A stretch of DNA of 10,260 nucleotides from a virus. Under the pieces are notes generated by a model. That model saw only the letters and a list, made by a program, of their open reading frames with translations. It was not told where the DNA came from and ran no database searches. The stretch lies in UHGV virus genome UHGV-0142786. One strand, written 5' to 3'. This document shows positions 2,649 through 8,178 of this stretch, in pieces (the first letter of the stretch is position 1; each line of letters opens with the position of its first letter). The translations under genes and the position numbers were made by a program.

Positions 2649-3247
2649 GCAGCCCTGTCTCCCCATCTTGCTTTCATTGTTTCATTTGCAAATCGCCAGA
2701 ATCTTCCTTTGTGATATGAGCTTTCGCCATTACAGCAACGACTAATTGACGAACTATCAAATCCTTCTCTGACAGCATCCATAGCTGCTTCATAATAAAC
2801 CTCCTCACCAGTTTTCATGTCAGTAGAAATAACAGCTTTACTGGCAGGATGATCACCGCTAAATTTACCTAGCGATATAGGTATTCTTCCATTTTGTTTA
2901 TATCCGTGCTTTGAGTTTTCAGAATGTGATACCCATTCAAGGTTTTCAGCCCTATTGTCATCTCTTTGCCCATTTTTGTGATTAACTACCAAGCCATCAC
3001 AGAACCCTGTACAGAATGCTTTCGCAACTATCCTGTGGGCGCTGTATTTCTTACCGTATACCTTTATTTGAAGATATCCTGTCGACTTGCACTTGAATGG
3101 TTTTACGCTAGTGCCATTAATTATTTTCTTATATGGCCTCTGTCTGGTTGATGTTACTGTAACTTCCCTCGTAATAGACCTGAAATTTCCTTTATTGCTA
3201 ACCTGATAAAATGGAATCCCTTCGATATCTACCCAAACCTCAATCAT
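2645..3247 (-). CDS. HNH homing endonuclease (NUMOD4 + HNH_3 type), inserted at the 3' end of ninB
   Basis: 200-aa ORF. N-terminal EVWVDIEGIPFYQVSNKGNFRS resembles NUMOD4; HKNGQRDDNRAENLEWVSHSENSKHG is an HNH_3 motif. Own GGAGG Shine-Dalgarno. The last 9 residues KARWGDRAA equal the lambda NinB C-terminus. Confidence 0.85.
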   Translation of the reverse strand: MIEVWVDIEGIPFYQVSNKGNFRSITREVTVTSTRQRPYKKIINGTSVKPFKCKSTGYLQIKVYGKKYSAHRIVAKAFCTGFCDGLVVNHKNGQRDDNRAENLEWVSHSENSKHGYKQNGRIPISLGKFSGDHPASKAVISTDMKTGEEVYYEAAMDAVREGFDSSSISRCCNGESSYHKGRFWRFANETMKARWGDRAA

Positions 3248-3656
3248 AATTCCTCCATTCGCTAAGATGAATTGAGTTCATGGCACAATATGCTTCTATG
3301 TAGTCCATTATTTCGGATATTTTTTTTACAGATAGAGTCGCCGTACTCTCTCTGATGTTTATTAGCTCACCTTCTAACCCTGATATAATCTCAGGGTGCT
3401 GGTTGGTTGCAATTTGCCAACCAGAAACGAATAACCCCTTCCAAAACTCAATATTTCTTTCTTTTCCATGATATGTGGCCTTCTTACTTATTTCAGATAG
3501 CATCGCGTGAAGGCGTGCATTTTGCCGAATGCTGCGGTTGCGTTCCTGAATGGTTACTACGATTGGTTTGGTTGGGTCTGGAAGAATTTGCTGCACCGCG
3601 TGAATAGCGTTTTGCTGATGTGCTGGAGATCGAATTTCAAAGGTTAGTTTTTTCAT
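3240..3656 (-). CDS. ninB: NinB (Orf-family recombination mediator), mosaic and C-terminally altered
   Basis: Track ORF 3240..3674 starts at a TTG; the ATG at 3656 gives MKKLTFEIRSPAHQQNAIHAVQQILPDPTKPIVVTIQERNRS, identical to the lambda NinB N-terminus as I recall it. The rest is divergent but collinear, and it ends ...LSEWRNYD instead of ...[14 protein letters not shown]. Confidence 0.8.
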   Translation of the reverse strand: MKKLTFEIRSPAHQQNAIHAVQQILPDPTKPIVVTIQERNRSIRQNARLHAMLSEISKKATYHGKERNIEFWKGLFVSGWQIATNQHPEIISGLEGELINIRESTATLSVKKISEIMDYIEAYCAMNSIHLSEWRNYD

Positions 3657-3671
3657 GACTTCCCTCTCCCC

Positions 3672-3704
3672 CAAATAAAAAGGCCTGCGATTACCAGCAG
3701 GCCT
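3672..3704 (-). terminator. Rho-independent terminator on the minus strand between the replication genes and the nin region (tR2 analogue)
   Basis: Stem AGGCCTGC (3681-3688) / GCAGGCCT (3697-3704) with an 8-nt loop; on the minus strand it is followed by TTTTATTTG (rc of 3672-3680). Lies 30 nt downstream of the primase-helicase stop. Confidence 0.65.
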
Positions 3705-3733
3705 GTTATTAGCTCAGTGATGTAGATGGTCAT

Positions 3734-5614
3734 TTAATACTCCGTCACGTTTTCCTGTCGCCACGCCTCGTCATATTCCGATTTCGGCATATTGGCGATG
3801 TAGCTATATGGCGATCCTGATTCAAGTTGCAGGAACTGGTGCGATTGCTCATCAAGGAACAACGGGACGCCACCTTCCCAACCTTCGCCGTTACGTTGTT
3901 TTTCAAGCATCAAAACAGATGCCGGAGACGCCAGTACCTGTTCGTCCTTCTCTGACATCTTTTCACCACTCTGAACTCTCTGTAACGCTCTCTCGCGAGC
4001 CTTGTTACGCCAGATGATGAAAAGGTTGTCTGTCAGGTCTGTTATCGCTCCAGAGCCTTTTACGTCCATTTTCCCGGTTGGTTTTTCTTCGCTGTCTCCT
4101 TTTCTGGAGTGAGTAACGAGAATGACGTGGGAGTTTGTTTTGTTTTTGAAGTCACAAATCGAGTCAACAAATGCTTTCTGCCCGTTATAGTCATCGTCAC
4201 CTATGCCGCATTTCATCAGGCTGTCGATGATGAATAACTGGATCCCGTATCGGCGGCGAGCGTAGTCGAATATTTCGATCAGCCTGTCGGCTTTCGCCGT
4301 TCCGGTCAGGCCAAACACCCAAAGTCTTTCGTCATAAAATTTAAATGCAGAGTCAATTTCCAGCACTGGCGGCATCTTGCAGCACGTCGCCTGACGGGTA
4401 AGGCGCTTAAGGAGAATACCAGGCTTCAGCTCAAGTGACGCGATGCACGTCTTCACACCCTGACGCATTGCCTCAAGTGCCATATGCCCGACAACCTCCG
4501 TTTTTCCGTGACCGTTCACACCATTGACCAGCGTCAACTCTGCCTCACGGAACTGGAATTTATCTGCCAGAGATTCCCACGGTGGATTAAACAGATACTG
4601 CTGCTTGCCGTAGAAAGCGTTGATAGTGTCCTGGTAAAACTCTCGCGCGCTGTAGAGTTCTTCAGGGTCGAAGTAGGATGCCGTGCCGATGTACTGCCAG
4701 ATTTCATCCTCGGTAACACCGTTCATCAGGCATTCGTTGATGTCTTTGTACGGCAGAGTAACAAGACGGCAACGATGTTCACCGAGTCGGCTTGCGATTT
4801 CCCTTGCGGCTTCACGACCAACATCATCAACGTCCATCGAGATGAATATTTCCTCAAACCTGTCGAGATTGTGATACTCAAACTCAATCCACTGCTGCTT
4901 AGCGCCTTTCCCGCCACCAAACGGCACGGATAACGCCGAGATGCCGTATTGCGCATAGCTCATACAATCAATTTCGCCTTCGCAAAGTACAACCGCCCTC
5001 ACGCCAGCGTCCAGAGCCTGCCATCCGAACAGACAAGGTTCGCAATCACCTTCTGCCATAATGACTTTCTTCCCGTCCGGGCGCTCAGTGCTGATTCGCT
5101 TGACCTGCAACAACTCACCATCGCGTTTGTACGGAATCACCAGAGCATCCAGTTCCCGCTCTCCATTCCACACCTTGCCGCTGACAACCTCGTAGCGCTT
5201 TACGACTTCTGGCGATATGCCACGCGATTGCAGGTACTCAAGATGGGATTCTGTTCTGGTAACGTAGCGGGCGATTTTCTTGCGATCAGGTCTGGAGAAT
5301 TTCTTCTCACGTTTGGCATCGAAATGGTGATCGTCATCCTTGATACCGAGAAATGCTTTCGCTTCCTGCATAGCCTGATGCAGGTTAATTCCACGACATG
5401 CCATCCACAAATCAAGCATGTCACCGCCGTCTCCCTCAGCGAAATCAGCCCATTTTTTCTTTCCGCTAAGGTTGACCTTAAGGCTGTTTCCCTTGTCACC
5501 GTTGACGTTACCGGCAACCCACTCATGCCCCTCTTTCTTGCCGTTTGGCAACAGGTGCGGAGCCACCCTGTCAACCTGCGCCCAAAGCAGGTCGCTAAGT
5601 TCACTTGGCCTCAT
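3734..5614 (-). CDS. Bifunctional DNA primase/helicase (TOPRIM domain plus RecA-fold DnaB/T7-gp4-like helicase), 626 aa
   Basis: TOPRIM-like acidic motifs VVLCEGEIDCMSYAQ and ISMDVDDVG; Walker A GVNGHGKTE; Walker B-like LFIIDSL. Occupies the lambda P position downstream of the O-like gene. GAGGG Shine-Dalgarno 5 nt upstream. Confidence 0.8.
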   Translation of the reverse strand: MRPSELSDLLWAQVDRVAPHLLPNGKKEGHEWVAGNVNGDKGNSLKVNLSGKKKWADFAEGDGGDMLDLWMACRGINLHQAMQEAKAFLGIKDDDHHFDAKREKKFSRPDRKKIARYVTRTESHLEYLQSRGISPEVVKRYEVVSGKVWNGERELDALVIPYKRDGELLQVKRISTERPDGKKVIMAEGDCEPCLFGWQALDAGVRAVVLCEGEIDCMSYAQYGISALSVPFGGGKGAKQQWIEFEYHNLDRFEEIFISMDVDDVGREAAREIASRLGEHRCRLVTLPYKDINECLMNGVTEDEIWQYIGTASYFDPEELYSAREFYQDTINAFYGKQQYLFNPPWESLADKFQFREAELTLVNGVNGHGKTEVVGHMALEAMRQGVKTCIASLELKPGILLKRLTRQATCCKMPPVLEIDSAFKFYDERLWVFGLTGTAKADRLIEIFDYARRRYGIQLFIIDSLMKCGIGDDDYNGQKAFVDSICDFKNKTNSHVILVTHSRKGDSEEKPTGKMDVKGSGAITDLTDNLFIIWRNKARERALQRVQSGEKMSEKDEQVLASPASVLMLEKQRNGEGWEGGVPLFLDEQSHQFLQLESGSPYSYIANMPKSEYDEAWRQENVTEY

Positions 5615-5718
5615 GATTCCCTCAGATTGAGATTTTTAAACCAGAAATCGACAAACGAAATACTTAACCAGCCGTGGTTATAACCAGCGACCAGTAGCGA
5701 TTTGATTTTTGATTTCAT
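5611..5718 (-). CDS. Candidate small ORF (35 aa) between the O-like gene and the primase-helicase
   Basis: Hand translation MKSKIKSLLVAGYNHGWLSISFVDFWFKNLNLRES. AGGTGA Shine-Dalgarno upstream; stop TGA overlaps the primase ATG (ATGA). Too short for the ORF track; no homology recognised. Confidence 0.3.
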   Translation of the reverse strand: MKSKIKSLLVAGYNHGWLSISFVDFWFKNLNLRES

Positions 5719-5721
5719 GGT

Positions 5722-6582
5722 TCACCTGTCGAAAAACACGTAGCCAGTTTTCGATACGGTGATTGCGGATGATGGTTTGGATTGTGGTTGAATGGTTTCT
5801 GGCTTTTCGTCGTTCCAGCGCTGACCGTTCAGGTAGCTCGATGGTAATAACCTGTCGAATCCGAACTGCTTACCATTCCTGCATGCGATGTCTTCTGCCA
5901 GCATCGTGGCAAACTCGCTTGCCGTACCCCTGGTAGTTTTACGCCATTCCCTGAACTGTGTTCTGAATGCCGAAGCTGCGTTTTTCTTCCCGGCCTTCCG
6001 CATGCCTGCACACCAGAATATTTCCTCGAATGCCTTGTCGGTTTCTTCGTGACGGTCAGGTGATTTTTCACACTCCGTCCGAACACTTTCGGACATAGTG
6101 TTTTTATTATTTCTTTTTTCTTTTGTAATAGTTTCTTTTGTGTGTCCCTGTTTTGGTGACAGCGCTGTCACCGTTTTGGTGACACTTTTTGTCACCAATG
6201 CAGTGACATTATCACCAGAGTAGTGACACCCTTCGATTTGCCATTCCTCGATGTTCTTGTTAGGCCCGATTTGCTGGCCTTCGCGAAGGATAACCTTCAT
6301 CGCGATAAGCTCATTCTTGGCCTTGTTTACCTTCTGTCTTGGCAGCCTGGTAATTTGAGCTAACTGACTATCAGAGATGCGATCCATCTTTTTACCGTAG
6401 CCGTATGTTTTACGGCATATGGCGTGGGCAACCTTGCTCTGATTTTTCGTTAAATCTGCGCCGATAAGCTCTTCATACAGGGCATTTGCAAGACGGGTAT
6501 AACCATCTTCAACTTCTGCCACACGACGCTCCACAGGCCGTTGTGAAGGCCTTAAATGTGTTACGGTTGCAAGATTACTCAT
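5722..6582 (-). CDS. Replication initiator with lambda-O-like N-terminal iteron-binding domain and a non-lambda C-terminal domain
   Basis: 286-aa [94 protein letters not shown] aligns with my recollection of the lambda O N-terminal domain. Iterons and an AT-rich tract lie inside the gene, as in ori-lambda. Confidence 0.85.
6093..6230. repeat. Candidate replication origin inside the O-like gene: four GTGACA-type iterons plus an adjacent AT-rich tract
   Basis: Perfect 18-bp palindrome GGTGACAGCGCTGTCACC (6155-6172); GGTGACACTTTTTGTCACC (6178-6196); GTGACATTATCACC (6204-6216); GTGACAC (6223-6229). AT-rich tract at about 6093-6150. In gene orientation: iterons first, then AT-rich, as in ori-lambda. 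Confidence 0.65.
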
Positions 6583-6721
6583 GACCTTTATCCTTCTGCA
6601 TCAGCTTCACTTTTTCCAACTCAGCCCGGAATCGACCAGGCTGCCTGAAGCTGGACAGGAAGCGATCACGTAGTATGTGTTTGTGAATTTTGTCCTGGTA
6701 AGGACTGAGTTGTTTTGTCAT
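6575..6721 (-). CDS. Candidate small basic ORF (48 aa) between cII and the O-like gene
   Basis: Hand translation [48 protein letters not shown]. Strong AGGAG Shine-Dalgarno 5 nt upstream of ATG 6721; 3' end overlaps the O-like start. Lambda has no gene in this position. Confidence 0.4.
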
Positions 6722-6753
6722 AATGACTCCTGTTGATAGATCCAGTAATTCCC

Positions 6754-7050
6754 TCAGAATTGCATATCAATTTGCTTAAAATCCTCGGTGGCGGCCGGGG
6801 ATTTTTTCTTTGTGAGTCCATCAAGCGCATACTTAAAAGCCCTGCTAATCGGACTGATGTCTGATGCCATTCCGAAAGCACACAAGACCGAAGCAATAAA
6901 TCTCCAGTCCGTTCTGCTTATCTTCGATTCATGACAGCCAATCATCTTTGCCAGACCGCGCTGGGTAAGCGTTGACAGGTTGATGAGTAAATCAGTTTCA
7001 GCGCGATCAATTTCTCGCTGTGTTGGCTTGCTGTAACTTGTTTGTGCCAT
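6754..7050 (-). CDS. cII: CII-like transcriptional activator (98 aa)
   Basis: C-terminus [19 protein letters not shown] against lambda CII TNKKRPAATERSEQIQMEF; central [11 protein letters not shown] against lambda SQISRWKRDW. Lies between cro and the replication genes. Confidence 0.8.
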
Positions 7051-7191: not shown

Positions 7192-7407
7192 TTAAGCAGC
7201 TTTGTGCTCCGGCGGGAACACATCATCAAGACTTACTTTTGCGCCTAACTTGTTTAGACACGCAACAAGAGCACGGCATGTTTTAAGGTCTGGGAAGCGA
7301 CGACCAGATTCCCAATGTCCGATAGCTCCCTGTGTGCATCCAACTGCCTTAGCAAGTGTTGTTTGAGAGATATTCAGTGACTCTCGATATTTTCGTAGGT
7401 TGCTCAT
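7192..7407 (-). CDS. cro: Cro-like HTH repressor (71 aa)
   Basis: Small HTH protein ([23 protein letters not shown]) transcribed divergently from cI, with a GGAGG Shine-Dalgarno. Confidence 0.8.
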
Positions 7408-7524
7408 ATGCCCTCCATAGTAACCACAAATAAAAAATACAATATGTACTCATTAAACACAAGCAAAAAATACACATTGTGCATGGATGGTTCCAGTACA
7501 AAGCGTAATAATAAGGACATGAAA
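7408..7524. promoter_or_regulatory. Divergent cro/cI control region (OR with PR and PRM)
   Basis: 117-bp gap between the divergent cro and cI starts. Two similar sites: AAAAAATACAATATGTAC (7433-7450) and AAAAAATACACATTGTGC (7465-7482), the second holding the palindrome CACATTGTG. Exact -10/-35 boxes not resolved. Confidence 0.55.
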
Positions 7525-8178
7525 ATGAAATGGTATGAACTGGCTAGATCCAGAATGAAAGAGCTCGGCATAACTCAAGAGAAGTTAGCCGAAGAGCTAG
7601 GTATGACGCAGGGTGGAATTGGACACTGGTTGCGCGGATCTCGTCATCCATCTCTTAGTGATATTGGTGTGGTGTTTAAATACCTTGGTATTGATAACAT
7701 ATCATTCAACCACGACGGGACATTTTCACCTGTTGGCGAATACTCATCGGCCCCAGTTAAAAAACAATATGAGTACCCTGTTTTTTCTCATGTTCAGGCT
7801 GGGATGTTCTCTCCAGAACTCAGAACCTTTACCAAAGGCGATGCGGAGAGATTGGTAAGCACAACCAAAAAAGCCAGTGACTCTGCATTCTGGCTTGAGG
7901 TTGAAGGTAACTCAATGACCGCACCAACAGGTTCCAAACCTAGTTTTCCTGACGGGATGTTAATTCTGGTTGACCCAGAGCAAGCTGTTGAGCCCGGCGA
8001 TTTCTGCATAGCCAGACTTGGTGGTGATGAGTTTACCTTCAAGAAACTGATCAGGGATAGCGGTCAGGTGTTTCTACAGCCACTAAACCCACAATACCCA
8101 ATGATCCCATGCAATGAGAGTTGTTCCGTTGTGGGGAAAGTTATCGCTAGTCAGTGGCCTGAAGAGACGTTTGGGTAG
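7525..8178 (+). CDS. cI: CI prophage repressor: HTH N-terminal domain plus LexA/S24-type autocleavage C-terminal domain
   Basis: C-terminal domain from [14 protein letters not shown] to WPEETFG is essentially identical to lambda CI as I recall it; the N-terminal domain is unrelated to lambda. Track ORF from 7408 is over-extended into the cro start. ATG 7525 has an AAGGA Shine-Dalgarno at 7 nt; ATG 7519 is the alternative. Confidence 0.85.

Follow-up and report, generated by a model that had tools for sequence, protein, structure and literature searches.

The two very short open reading frames that flank the replication initiator gene O of the virus UHGV-0142786, ORF48 and ORF35, are on comparative sequence evidence genuine protein-coding genes, each under purifying selection. 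We think it probable that both are small genes of the replication operon, with translation coupled to that of the following gene and accessory roles in the replication module. They lie in the window, the stretch of 10,260 nucleotides that was analysed, where the original prediction had placed, exact to the base, a basic 48-aa ORF with an AGGAG Shine-Dalgarno (SD) sequence and an overlap with the O start, and a 35-aa ORF with an AGGTGA SD and an ATGA overlap with the primase start (Table 1). Its description of both as unannotated holds for the ORF track of the window but not for other records, which carry DUF2740, orf48 or hypothetical-protein annotations. The practical value of the result is modest: an evolutionary test confirms two very small frames of a classic phage operon as genes.

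Locus layout and gene families

The genes cII, ORF48, O, ORF35 and primase-helicase follow one another in this order, tightly packed and all on the minus strand; both small ORFs would belong to the early replication operon that a lambdoid prophage transcribes rightward from pR. O begins within the last codons of ORF48, giving an 8-nt overlap (ATGAGTAA), and may have its own SD, AAGGA, which lies within ORF48 and 8 nt before the O start. Its stop codon lies inside the ORF35 SD; GGTGA or GAGGT is common 5' of the ORF35 ATG among homologues. Within O, the iterons are followed, reading along the coding (minus) strand, by an A+T-rich stretch (about 6100-6141), and the corresponding site carries an ori annotation in the records of ES18 and P22.

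Table 1 Features of the cII to primase-helicase region, in coordinates of the window
Feature	Position	Strand	Basis and remarks
T7-gp4-like primase-helicase (Toprim + DnaB-like ATPase)	3734..5614	-	Toprim_2 E 3e-12; AAA_25 and DnaB_C matches; ATG 5614-5612; own SD GAGGG 5623-5619
ORF35, 35 aa, PHROG 21848 (ES18 gp60 / epsilon34 gp51 / g341c gp46)	5611..5718	-	phrog_21848 E 4.4e-26; ATG 5718-5716, stop TGA 5613-5611; between O and primase-helicase
ORF35 SD AGGTGA	5722..5727	-	Read from sequence; 3-nt spacer to ATG; includes O stop TGA
Replication initiator O	5722..6582	-	PF04492 E 1.2e-37; start 6582-6580, stop TGA 5724-5722
Four lambda-type ori iterons, ~19-20 nt each	6143..6228		Repeat search, families D1, D2 and I1, I2; inside O
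ORF48, 48 aa, DUF2740 (P22 orf48 / HK620 hkaW / PHROG 1913)	6575..6721	-	PF10872 and phrog_1913 profile matches; ATG 6721-6719, stop TAA 6577-6575; between cII and O
Inferred -10 hexamer CATAAT of oop promoter pO	6719..6724	+	Oop-strand alignment with lambda and P22
ORF48 SD AGGAG	6727..6731	-	Read from sequence; 5-nt spacer to ATG
Lambda OOP antisense RNA homologue	6732..6808	+	Ends inferred, gap-free alignment to lambda 38675-38599; terminator hairpin 6778-6805, then T run
cII gene	6754..7050	-	PF05269 E 3.5e-34; upstream of ORF48, 32-nt spacer between

ORF48 encodes a basic protein (pI 10.2; 12 K+R against 6 D+E) that matches PF10872 with 95.7 bits (cut-off 27, E 1.2e-27; its residues 6-48 cover all 43 positions of the profile) and phrog_1913 with E 3.4e-27, and is 83% identical to P22 orf48. 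By these matches it is the already catalogued P22 orf48/DUF2740 gene and not a new one. PGAP names the copy in a near-identical prophage 'DUF2740 family protein', and annotation as DUF2740 or orf48 is routine elsewhere; roughly 1800 E. coli genomes have matches to the ORF48 region. P22, HK620, HK022, VT2-Sakai, ES18, epsilon34, g341c and others carry annotated homologues of one or both ORFs. PHROG and RefSeq phage records call DUF2740 a 'tail protein'; this label, very unlikely to be right for a 48-aa early-operon protein, looks like an error that has spread from record to record.

ORF35 too is already catalogued in related phages, as ES18 gp60, and is not new. Residues 1-34 align with positions 1-34 of the 35 in phrog_21848, tblastn finds homologues in 44 phage records, and several phage records annotate it as a hypothetical protein. 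Searches of Pfam and NCBIfam gave no match, and the family is without a model in either. Protein databases contain hardly any members (4 clusters among 5.8 billion). Its DNA is present in 292 of 5426 complete E. coli genomes, and PGAP annotated it in none of 25 sampled E. coli records nor in one near-identical prophage record. ORF35 is in this sense an annotation gap.

The AF2 model of ORF48 is a helical hairpin (helices 7-23 and 30-44, pLDDT 78) built from a shallow alignment and consisting of simple helices; a Foldseek search with it returned no match. That of ORF35 is a single helix (pLDDT 80), weak because it was built from 5 near-identical sequences, and the variable, small or polar residues 19-21 suggest that a helix-turn-helix hairpin is equally possible. 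A sequence-profile search against solved structures gave no similarity for either ORF, and no structural or sequence relative with known function was found. The searchable literature yielded no experiment on either protein: orf48 appears in positional mentions only, and nothing was found on DUF2740, hkaW or ES18 gp60.

Selection on the two reading frames

An open frame in a single sequence is weak evidence for a gene of this size, since the estimated chance of openness is about 0.19 for 35 codons and about 0.10 for 48; the decisive evidence is comparative. Across about 15 Enterobacterales genera, ORF35 has 33 distinct DNA versions, all of exactly 35 codons with no in-frame stop; all 149 complete related loci carry it intact. 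Its dN/dS is 0.20 in frame (0.18 for core codons 3-30) against 0.97 and 1.70 off frame (about 1.0-1.9), pN/pS is 0.33 against 0.97 and 1.54, and variability peaks at the third codon position (0.40, compared with 0.16 at the second). An alignment of 18 sequences is gap-free, with K2, K6, L9, G12, G16 and V23 invariant. Conservation is strongest in residues 2-16, the N-terminal half that holds a GYNHG block, and the last two residues are the most variable.

For ORF48, dN/dS is 0.34 overall and 0.25 at codons 11-43, with off-frame values of about 1.0-1.4. The narrow-alignment locus search returned 96%-identical loci only, and diverse copies were taken from other locus sets. The frame is intact in 148 of 148 complete related loci, five of which have a 47-aa form shorter by one codon. 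Third-position variability and off-frame dN/dS of at least 1 place the constraint on the protein for both ORFs.

The conservation test that the original prediction proposed thus finds both frames under purifying selection and their stop/start overlaps with the downstream gene conserved, and the frameshifts or stops in related phages that it had named as a refutation were sought in about 150 related loci per ORF and not found. It had left a choice between real micro-proteins and coupling leaders; the synonymous excess, present in frame and in neither of the other two frames, favours real proteins.

The overlaps themselves are well kept. Both ORFs have the stop/start geometry of a coupled pair (ATGAGTAA and ATGA), which is retained in relatives; elsewhere homologues of the two ORFs use ATGA, TGATGA, TAATG or TAGTG, and overlap or adjacency of ORF35 with the primase gene is maintained in 22 diverse homologues. 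The final KGHE of ORF48 is encoded by ...AAAGGTCATGAG and the LR of ORF35 by CTGAGG. The last residues of both peptides are, judged from these codons, fixed by the downstream SD and start; the conservation of L32-R33 in ORF35 is explained by the primase SD CTGAGG. These overlaps and imposed C-termini are what would be expected of pure coupling leaders, which serve only to bring ribosomes to O and the primase-helicase, their peptide sequences being irrelevant. We nonetheless regard that explanation as highly improbable, as amino acids are conserved far past the overlaps while synonymous sites vary (the core values given above), and ORF35 keeps its invariant residues and fixed length across genera. 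Coupling of real proteins may not be obligatory, because O and the primase-helicase each have their own SD.

An alternative form of leader would act in cis as a nascent peptide, through exit-tunnel stalling or termination control that tunes translation of O or the primase. With 35 aa, ORF35 would roughly span the ribosome exit tunnel; it is constant in length and always ends at the primase start. The C-terminal two residues of ORF35 are, however, its most variable, and its conservation is N-terminal, unlike that of known arrest peptides, where it is C-terminal; the critical residues are not placed as in a SecM/TnaC-type arrest leader. With ORF48 predicted to form a helical hairpin and no known effector, we consider nascent-peptide control improbable, and genuine small proteins remain the preferred reading.

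The cII-oop-ORF48 junction and constraint on nucleotides

The first 10 codons of ORF48 differ from the rest of the gene: pS is only 0.077 and there is no coding signature. Roughly this segment is constrained as DNA, because pO and the ribosome-binding site lie there, and not as protein. On the opposite strand the candidate -10 hexamer CATAAT is the complement of ATTATG, which holds the ORF48 start codon, and in the P22 record the annotated oop promoter extends over the start of orf48; pO has been described at this junction (PMC3349717). The adjoining RNA is assigned as a homologue of lambda OOP on sequence homology, the -10 hexamer and an intrinsic terminator within the cII 3' end, to which it is antisense. 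It has a fold energy of -24.1 kcal/mol (z -2.6), and an Rfam search matched no family, oop included.

Alignment with lambda and P22 shows CTGGATCTATCAACAGGAGTCATTATGAC to be identical to lambda at the ORF48 SD region. The ORF48 ribosome-binding site and start codon are the block that lambda uses for O, and its other strand aligns with the -10 region and start of the lambda oop promoter. Lambda and the window are nearly identical in the cII 3' end, the oop RNA with its terminator, the pO -10 and the SD and ATG block. They differ in what the start codon opens: in lambda it opens O directly, whereas here it opens ORF48 and O begins 140 nt later. Lambda has no gene at either position, as the original prediction had stated and as our comparison confirms; it is naturally without the orf48 gene (PMC3349717). 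Lambda works without ORF48.

Constraint on DNA at the ORF48 start raises the question of whether both frames are by-products of nucleotide-level conservation, whether of a promoter, an RNA structure or protein-binding DNA. For ORF35, a single-sequence fold of the mRNA gives a long hairpin (z -2.7), and Asn14 is encoded by AAC in 21 of the 22 homologues aligned and by AAT in none, the remaining one having a Cys codon there. Conserved RNA structure at ORF35 was rejected, as the consensus over the 22 homologues is negligible (-3.5 kcal/mol, covariation term -0.24), and no Rfam family matched. Together with the third-position variability, the off-frame ratios and the lack of frameshifted copies in about 150 loci, this leaves us giving almost no credence to an explanation by nucleotides alone; selection on the proteins is the reading we retain.

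Possible roles and relation to known phages

The arrangement of a cII-like gene and oop followed by a 47-48 aa ORF that overlaps the start of an O-like initiator recurs in P22 and in Klebsiella, Citrobacter and Erwinia loci. Where a 168-aa gene has been inserted after cII, DUF2740 still overlaps the initiator. ORF48 thus stays joined to the initiator gene despite the insertion, so that it probably acts with the initiator. We propose that ribosomes ending ORF48 would feed translation of O, and that the basic helical hairpin probably works with the origin-binding initiator. In other loci the ORF48 slot is filled by ORFs of 46-55 aa with an HKNxxRDRF motif, almost all of which overlap or abut the initiator start.

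ORF35 is seen only directly upstream of this T7-gp4-like primase-helicase family, whatever initiator precedes it (O-type, HTH-type or other). The pair occurs in Escherichia, Salmonella, Shimwellia, Pantoea, Xenorhabdus, Morganella, Arsenophonus, Providencia, Rosenbergiella and Phaseolibacter. Of 26 full-length primase loci of different genera, 21 have ORF35, as does every close viral contig. It is missing from the other five full-length relatives, in one case through a clean deletion that distinguishes two otherwise similar Xenorhabdus prophages (L019 and L020), so that it is dispensable at least for prophage persistence. Distant Burkholderiales helicase-domain matches (L034-L039) are helicase-only genes with no ORF35. 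A C-terminal tail of O (13 protein letters) is kept across different initiator types. ORF35 is probably a small accessory partner or modulator of the primase-helicase, co-produced with it by translational coupling, and would share one exchangeable module with the O tail, which probably recruits the helicase. Its clean deletion from some relatives suggests that it is helpful, not essential. Linkage with a neighbouring gene is in itself no proof of physical or functional interaction. The tight linkage of ORF35 to the primase-helicase and of ORF48 to O may bear on how lambdoid replication modules assemble.

Two possible fusions were sought and rejected. In the window ORF35 is in the frame of O (TGA ACC ATG), as would be needed for stop read-through, but relatives do not keep this relation, their two ORFs being 2, 4 or 7 nt apart. 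For a frameshift or Rosetta-stone fusion of ORF35 to the primase, a full HMMER scan gave one 131-aa read-through of O tail and ORF35 (Arsenophonus-like) and two chance matches to repeat proteins.

Both ORFs could be real proteins and still have 'moron-like' functions unrelated to replication, ORF48 acting through CII or FtsH on the lysis-lysogeny decision, for example, and ORF35 in host take-over or anti-defence. Small phage proteins made early often act on the host, ORF48 directly follows cII and oop, the HKNxxRDRF motif persists upstream of initiators of different types, and both ORFs are dispensable in some relatives. We nevertheless hold such functions to be unlikely. DUF2740 follows the initiator and not cII when those two separate, and ORF35 is tied strictly to one helicase family within the module of O tail and primase. 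At E up to 1, neither ORF matched any PADLOC model or the CIII family in Pfam, and CIII is encoded by a gene of its own in a near-identical prophage.

Within the preferred reading of replication accessories, a more specific proposal is tentative, possible but short of what we would expect. ORF35 might be a dedicated 35-residue micro-subunit of the primase-helicase, missed by gene callers in hundreds of genomes, whose GxxxG-like GYNHG block packs helices and which might bridge the initiator tail to the helicase or gate its loading. In parallel, ORF48 and the HKNxxRDRF family might be a general small partner of lambdoid initiators.

The closest known systems are phages in which these genes are already catalogued. 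P22 orf48, HK620 hkaW and HK022 orf48 are DUF2740 proteins (83-96% identity, full-length HMM match) in the same slot after a cII-like gene and oop, with the same 8-nt ATGAGTAA overlap and the oop promoter over the 5' end. P22 differs in having gp12 (DnaB-like) after the initiator where the window has the primase-helicase, and otherwise in nothing substantive. HK97 gp53 and ES18 gp58 (53-54 aa), like the 46-55 aa HKNxxRDRF ORFs, occupy the ORF48 slot and overlap the initiator, and most share the SD block; the HKNxxRDRF ORFs look like distant DUF2740 relatives (20-43% identity), and ES18 gp58 has no evident similarity to ORF48. With lambda P, which recruits the helicase and binds the C-terminal domain of O, ORF35 would be comparable in position only: it lies directly after O, in the module that starts with the O tail. 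P has 233 aa against 35, there is no sequence similarity, and these phages carry their own helicase. ES18 gp60, epsilon34 gp51 and g341c gp46 are the counterparts of ORF35, which shares 97% identity with ES18 gp60 and 71% with the epsilon34 type; all are 35-aa proteins encoded between the initiator and a T7-gp4-like primase-helicase with a stop/start overlap, and the window copy shows no difference from them.

Gene order and signals at the two junctions

The window is a lambdoid prophage immunity and replication region whose early rightward operon runs on the minus strand. ORF48 (48 codons, cII/O junction) and ORF35 (35 codons, O/primase-helicase junction) lie exactly where the original prediction placed them, and the signals it ascribed to them are present in the window sequence. 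ORF48 has an AGGAG Shine-Dalgarno (6731-6727) 5 nt ahead of its ATG, encodes a basic protein (computed pI 10.2) and holds the O start codon (6582-6580) within its last codons, in the overlap ATGAGTAA. The AGGTGA of ORF35 (5727-5722), which includes the O stop codon, is 3 nt ahead of the ATG; the ORF35 stop and primase start combine as ATGA, and the primase Shine-Dalgarno, GAGGG, is located within ORF35. The two small frames are closely packed with O and the primase in one chain.

Features of the replication region
Feature	Coordinates	Strand	Remarks
cI-like repressor	7408-8178	+	
cro-like gene	7192-7407	-	
oop homologue	~6732-6808	+	gap-free alignment to lambda; opposite cII 3' end
oop terminator	6778-6805	+	strong
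cII	6754-7050	-	PF05269
ORF48	6721-6575	-	
O-like initiator	5722-6582	-	PF04492
iterons	6143-6228		four, ~19-20 nt (TGTCACC...GGTGACA), within O gene
A+T-rich stretch	~6100-6141		after iterons on coding (minus) strand
ORF35	5718-5611	-	
Toprim/DnaB-like primase-helicase	3734-5614	-	
third micro-ORF	3653-3733	-	26 aa, MTIYITELITGLLVIAGLFIWGRGKS

In the window O and ORF35 share a frame, separated by TGA ACC alone (5719-5724, minus strand), so read-through would yield a fusion. A single database protein (P0050, 131 aa) has a fusion of this type. The shared frame is probably incidental, since the spacing varies among relatives.

The third micro-ORF begins right at the primase-helicase stop (TAAATG) and ends just past the first ATG (3656) of a 144-aa ORF (3240-3674), whose counterpart in MB46, a near-identical E. 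coli prophage, is annotated as recombination protein NinB. With a GRAVY of 1.15, its peptide is hydrophobic and resembles a transmembrane segment. Shimwellia and Pantoea have similar peptides after the primase; most other relatives do not.

Selection on the two frames

By our estimate a given frame would stay open by chance over 35 codons with a probability of roughly 0.19, and over 48 codons with one of roughly 0.10, so that the verdict rests on comparison with relatives. Among 18 distinct DNA versions of ORF48, including P22, Klebsiella, Citrobacter, a Pseudescherichia MAG and an Erwinia phage, synonymous change is in excess in frame, with a Nei-Gojobori dN/dS of 0.34 against 1.13 and 1.03 in the other frames; for codons 11-43 the values are 0.25 against 1.38 and 1.27. 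All 33 distinct versions of ORF35 are exactly 35 codons long with no in-frame stop; in-frame dN/dS is 0.20, the other two frames give 0.97 and 1.70, and variability is highest at third codon positions. An 18-sequence ORF35 alignment is free of gaps, with K2, K6, L9, G12, G16 and V23 invariant and a GYNHG block. In all homologues compared the ORF35 stop overlaps the primase start or comes close to it, the junction reading ATGA, TGATGA, TAATG or TAGTG, with a 4-nt gap in one phage. ORF48 is intact in 148/148 complete related loci and ORF35 in 149/149; the disrupted copies named in the original prediction as contrary evidence appear in neither set.

On this comparative evidence both frames are shown to be conserved coding genes under purifying selection. 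That they are pure leaders is disfavoured, as the selection pattern speaks against it. Cis-acting nascent peptides are possible, but the location of the conservation does not fit. Constraint by DNA- or RNA-level elements applies at the ORF48 5' end only. There, codons 1-10 carry no coding signature among the 18 versions and synonymous diversity is just 0.077, which fits DNA-level constraint by the promoter pO and the ribosome-binding site. For ORF35, no conserved RNA structure was found behind the conservation (alifold consensus energy -3.5 kcal/mol). Of 22 diverse homologues aligned, 21 have AAC as the ORF35 Asn14 codon (5677-5679, minus strand) and one has a Cys codon, while AAT never occurs; TATAACCACGG at this site is nearly invariant as DNA, a small excess of synonymous conservation.

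In the P22 reference annotation the oop promoter spans the start of orf48, and the terminator of oop falls within the 3' end of c1. Window and lambda align without a mismatch over the block CTGGATCTATCAACAGGAGTCATTATGAC; it is the O initiation region in lambda, whereas in the window it opens ORF48. The inferred pO -10 hexamer, CATAAT (6719-6724, plus strand), is the complement of ATTATG, which holds the ORF48 start codon. The alignment thus shows that the ORF48 start shares DNA with sequence aligning to lambda pO. Judged by the same alignment, 6732-6808 is clearly homologous to the OOP antisense RNA of lambda; no Rfam family matched it.

Families and distribution

ORF48 belongs to Pfam DUF2740, with a full-length match of 95.7 bits (cut-off 27), and also matches PHROG 1913; its near-identical MB46 copy carries the PGAP name 'DUF2740 family protein'. 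A tblastn search places it in 127 phage records, among them P22 (orf48), HK620 (hkaW), HK022, VT2-Sakai and Stx2 phages, and the protein database searched has 42 clusters of it, drawn from Escherichia, Salmonella, Citrobacter and Klebsiella. The AF2 model is a helical hairpin (pLDDT 78), for which neither fold nor sequence search found a PDB relative. DUF2740 still overlaps the initiator in a Citrobacter prophage where an inserted gene of 168 aa follows cII. Pantoea, Xenorhabdus, Arsenophonus, Rosenbergiella and other distant prophages have ORFs of 46-55 aa in the slot, almost all overlapping or abutting the initiator start and most sharing an HKNxxRDRF motif and the leader CAGGAGTAATTAT. ES18 and HK97, in contrast, have an apparently unrelated 53-aa ORF there. 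PHROG 1913 and several RefSeq phage records (e.g. NC_002371, NC_019706, NC_070949) call DUF2740/orf48 a 'tail protein'; for an early-operon product of 48 aa the name looks like an annotation error that has been passed along.

ORF35 matches PHROG 21848 (E 4e-26) and nothing in Pfam, NCBIfam or PADLOC. ES18 gp60 ('function unknown') shares 97% identity with it, and epsilon34 gp51, g341c gp46 and the Min27/phi24B type share 71%; phages SaltyDalty and Fraca carry versions of ~50% identity at the same position behind different initiators. In a scan of one genome per species, 21 of 26 full-length primase-helicase relatives (66-99% identity) have a 35-codon ORF directly upstream, in genera including Shimwellia, Pseudocitrobacter, Intestinirhabdus, Pantoea, Xenorhabdus, Morganella, Arsenophonus, Providencia, Rosenbergiella and Phaseolibacter. 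The other five lack it, and comparison of two related loci (L019, L020) reveals a clean deletion. Its strict linkage to one primase-helicase family is mildly notable. So is its consistent lack of annotation in the RefSeq records inspected: its DNA is present in 292/5426 complete E. coli genomes, yet in 25 rows sampled down the match ranking only flanking genes are annotated under the match, and the stretch is bare in MB46. Protein databases scarcely contain the family: a set of 5.8 billion proteins has 4 clusters of it, and one of 1.8 billion has 3 true representatives.

Replication module and comparison with lambda

We propose that translation of ORF48 would be coupled to that of O, and ORF35 to the primase, with each small peptide acting with the replication protein encoded downstream. 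Coupling may be partial, because O and the primase each have a Shine-Dalgarno of their own. Accessory functions unrelated to replication are a less likely possibility.

About a dozen residues at the C-terminus of the initiator, ITVSK(S/T)GYVF(F/I)(D/N)R (5722-5760, minus strand), are kept ahead of ORF35 and the primase and persist where the rest of the initiator is of a different type (L024 and L029, among loci L008-L033). Two Xenorhabdus prophages (L023, L025) lack both this tail and ORF35. It therefore seems that O tail, ORF35 and primase-helicase are exchanged as one unit. Conservation of the tail despite other initiator types suggests a putative helicase-docking peptide that also marks the module boundary. 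Stx phages of the Min27 and phi24B type have an initiator that is apparently split over two frames (Min27 L005, 1022-1797): the annotation of an HTH-type N-terminal part runs to 1690, and an O-type C-terminal part with the GYVFFDR tail lies in another frame (1516-1797). Possible causes are a frameshift, a fault of sequencing or annotation, or decay of the gene.

By their sequence, the iterons and A+T-rich stretch inside O constitute a predicted lambda-type origin; 'terminator-like' pattern-scan matches at 6154-6184 were rejected, being the iterons themselves. In lambda, the O C-terminal domain pairs with P, to which the tail/ORF35/primase unit would be analogous. The overall finding is sound but ordinary, of known genes rather than new ones: both were annotated long ago in GenBank phage records, and they belong to the existing families DUF2740 and PHROG 21848. 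Lambda itself has no gene at either position (PMC3349717).
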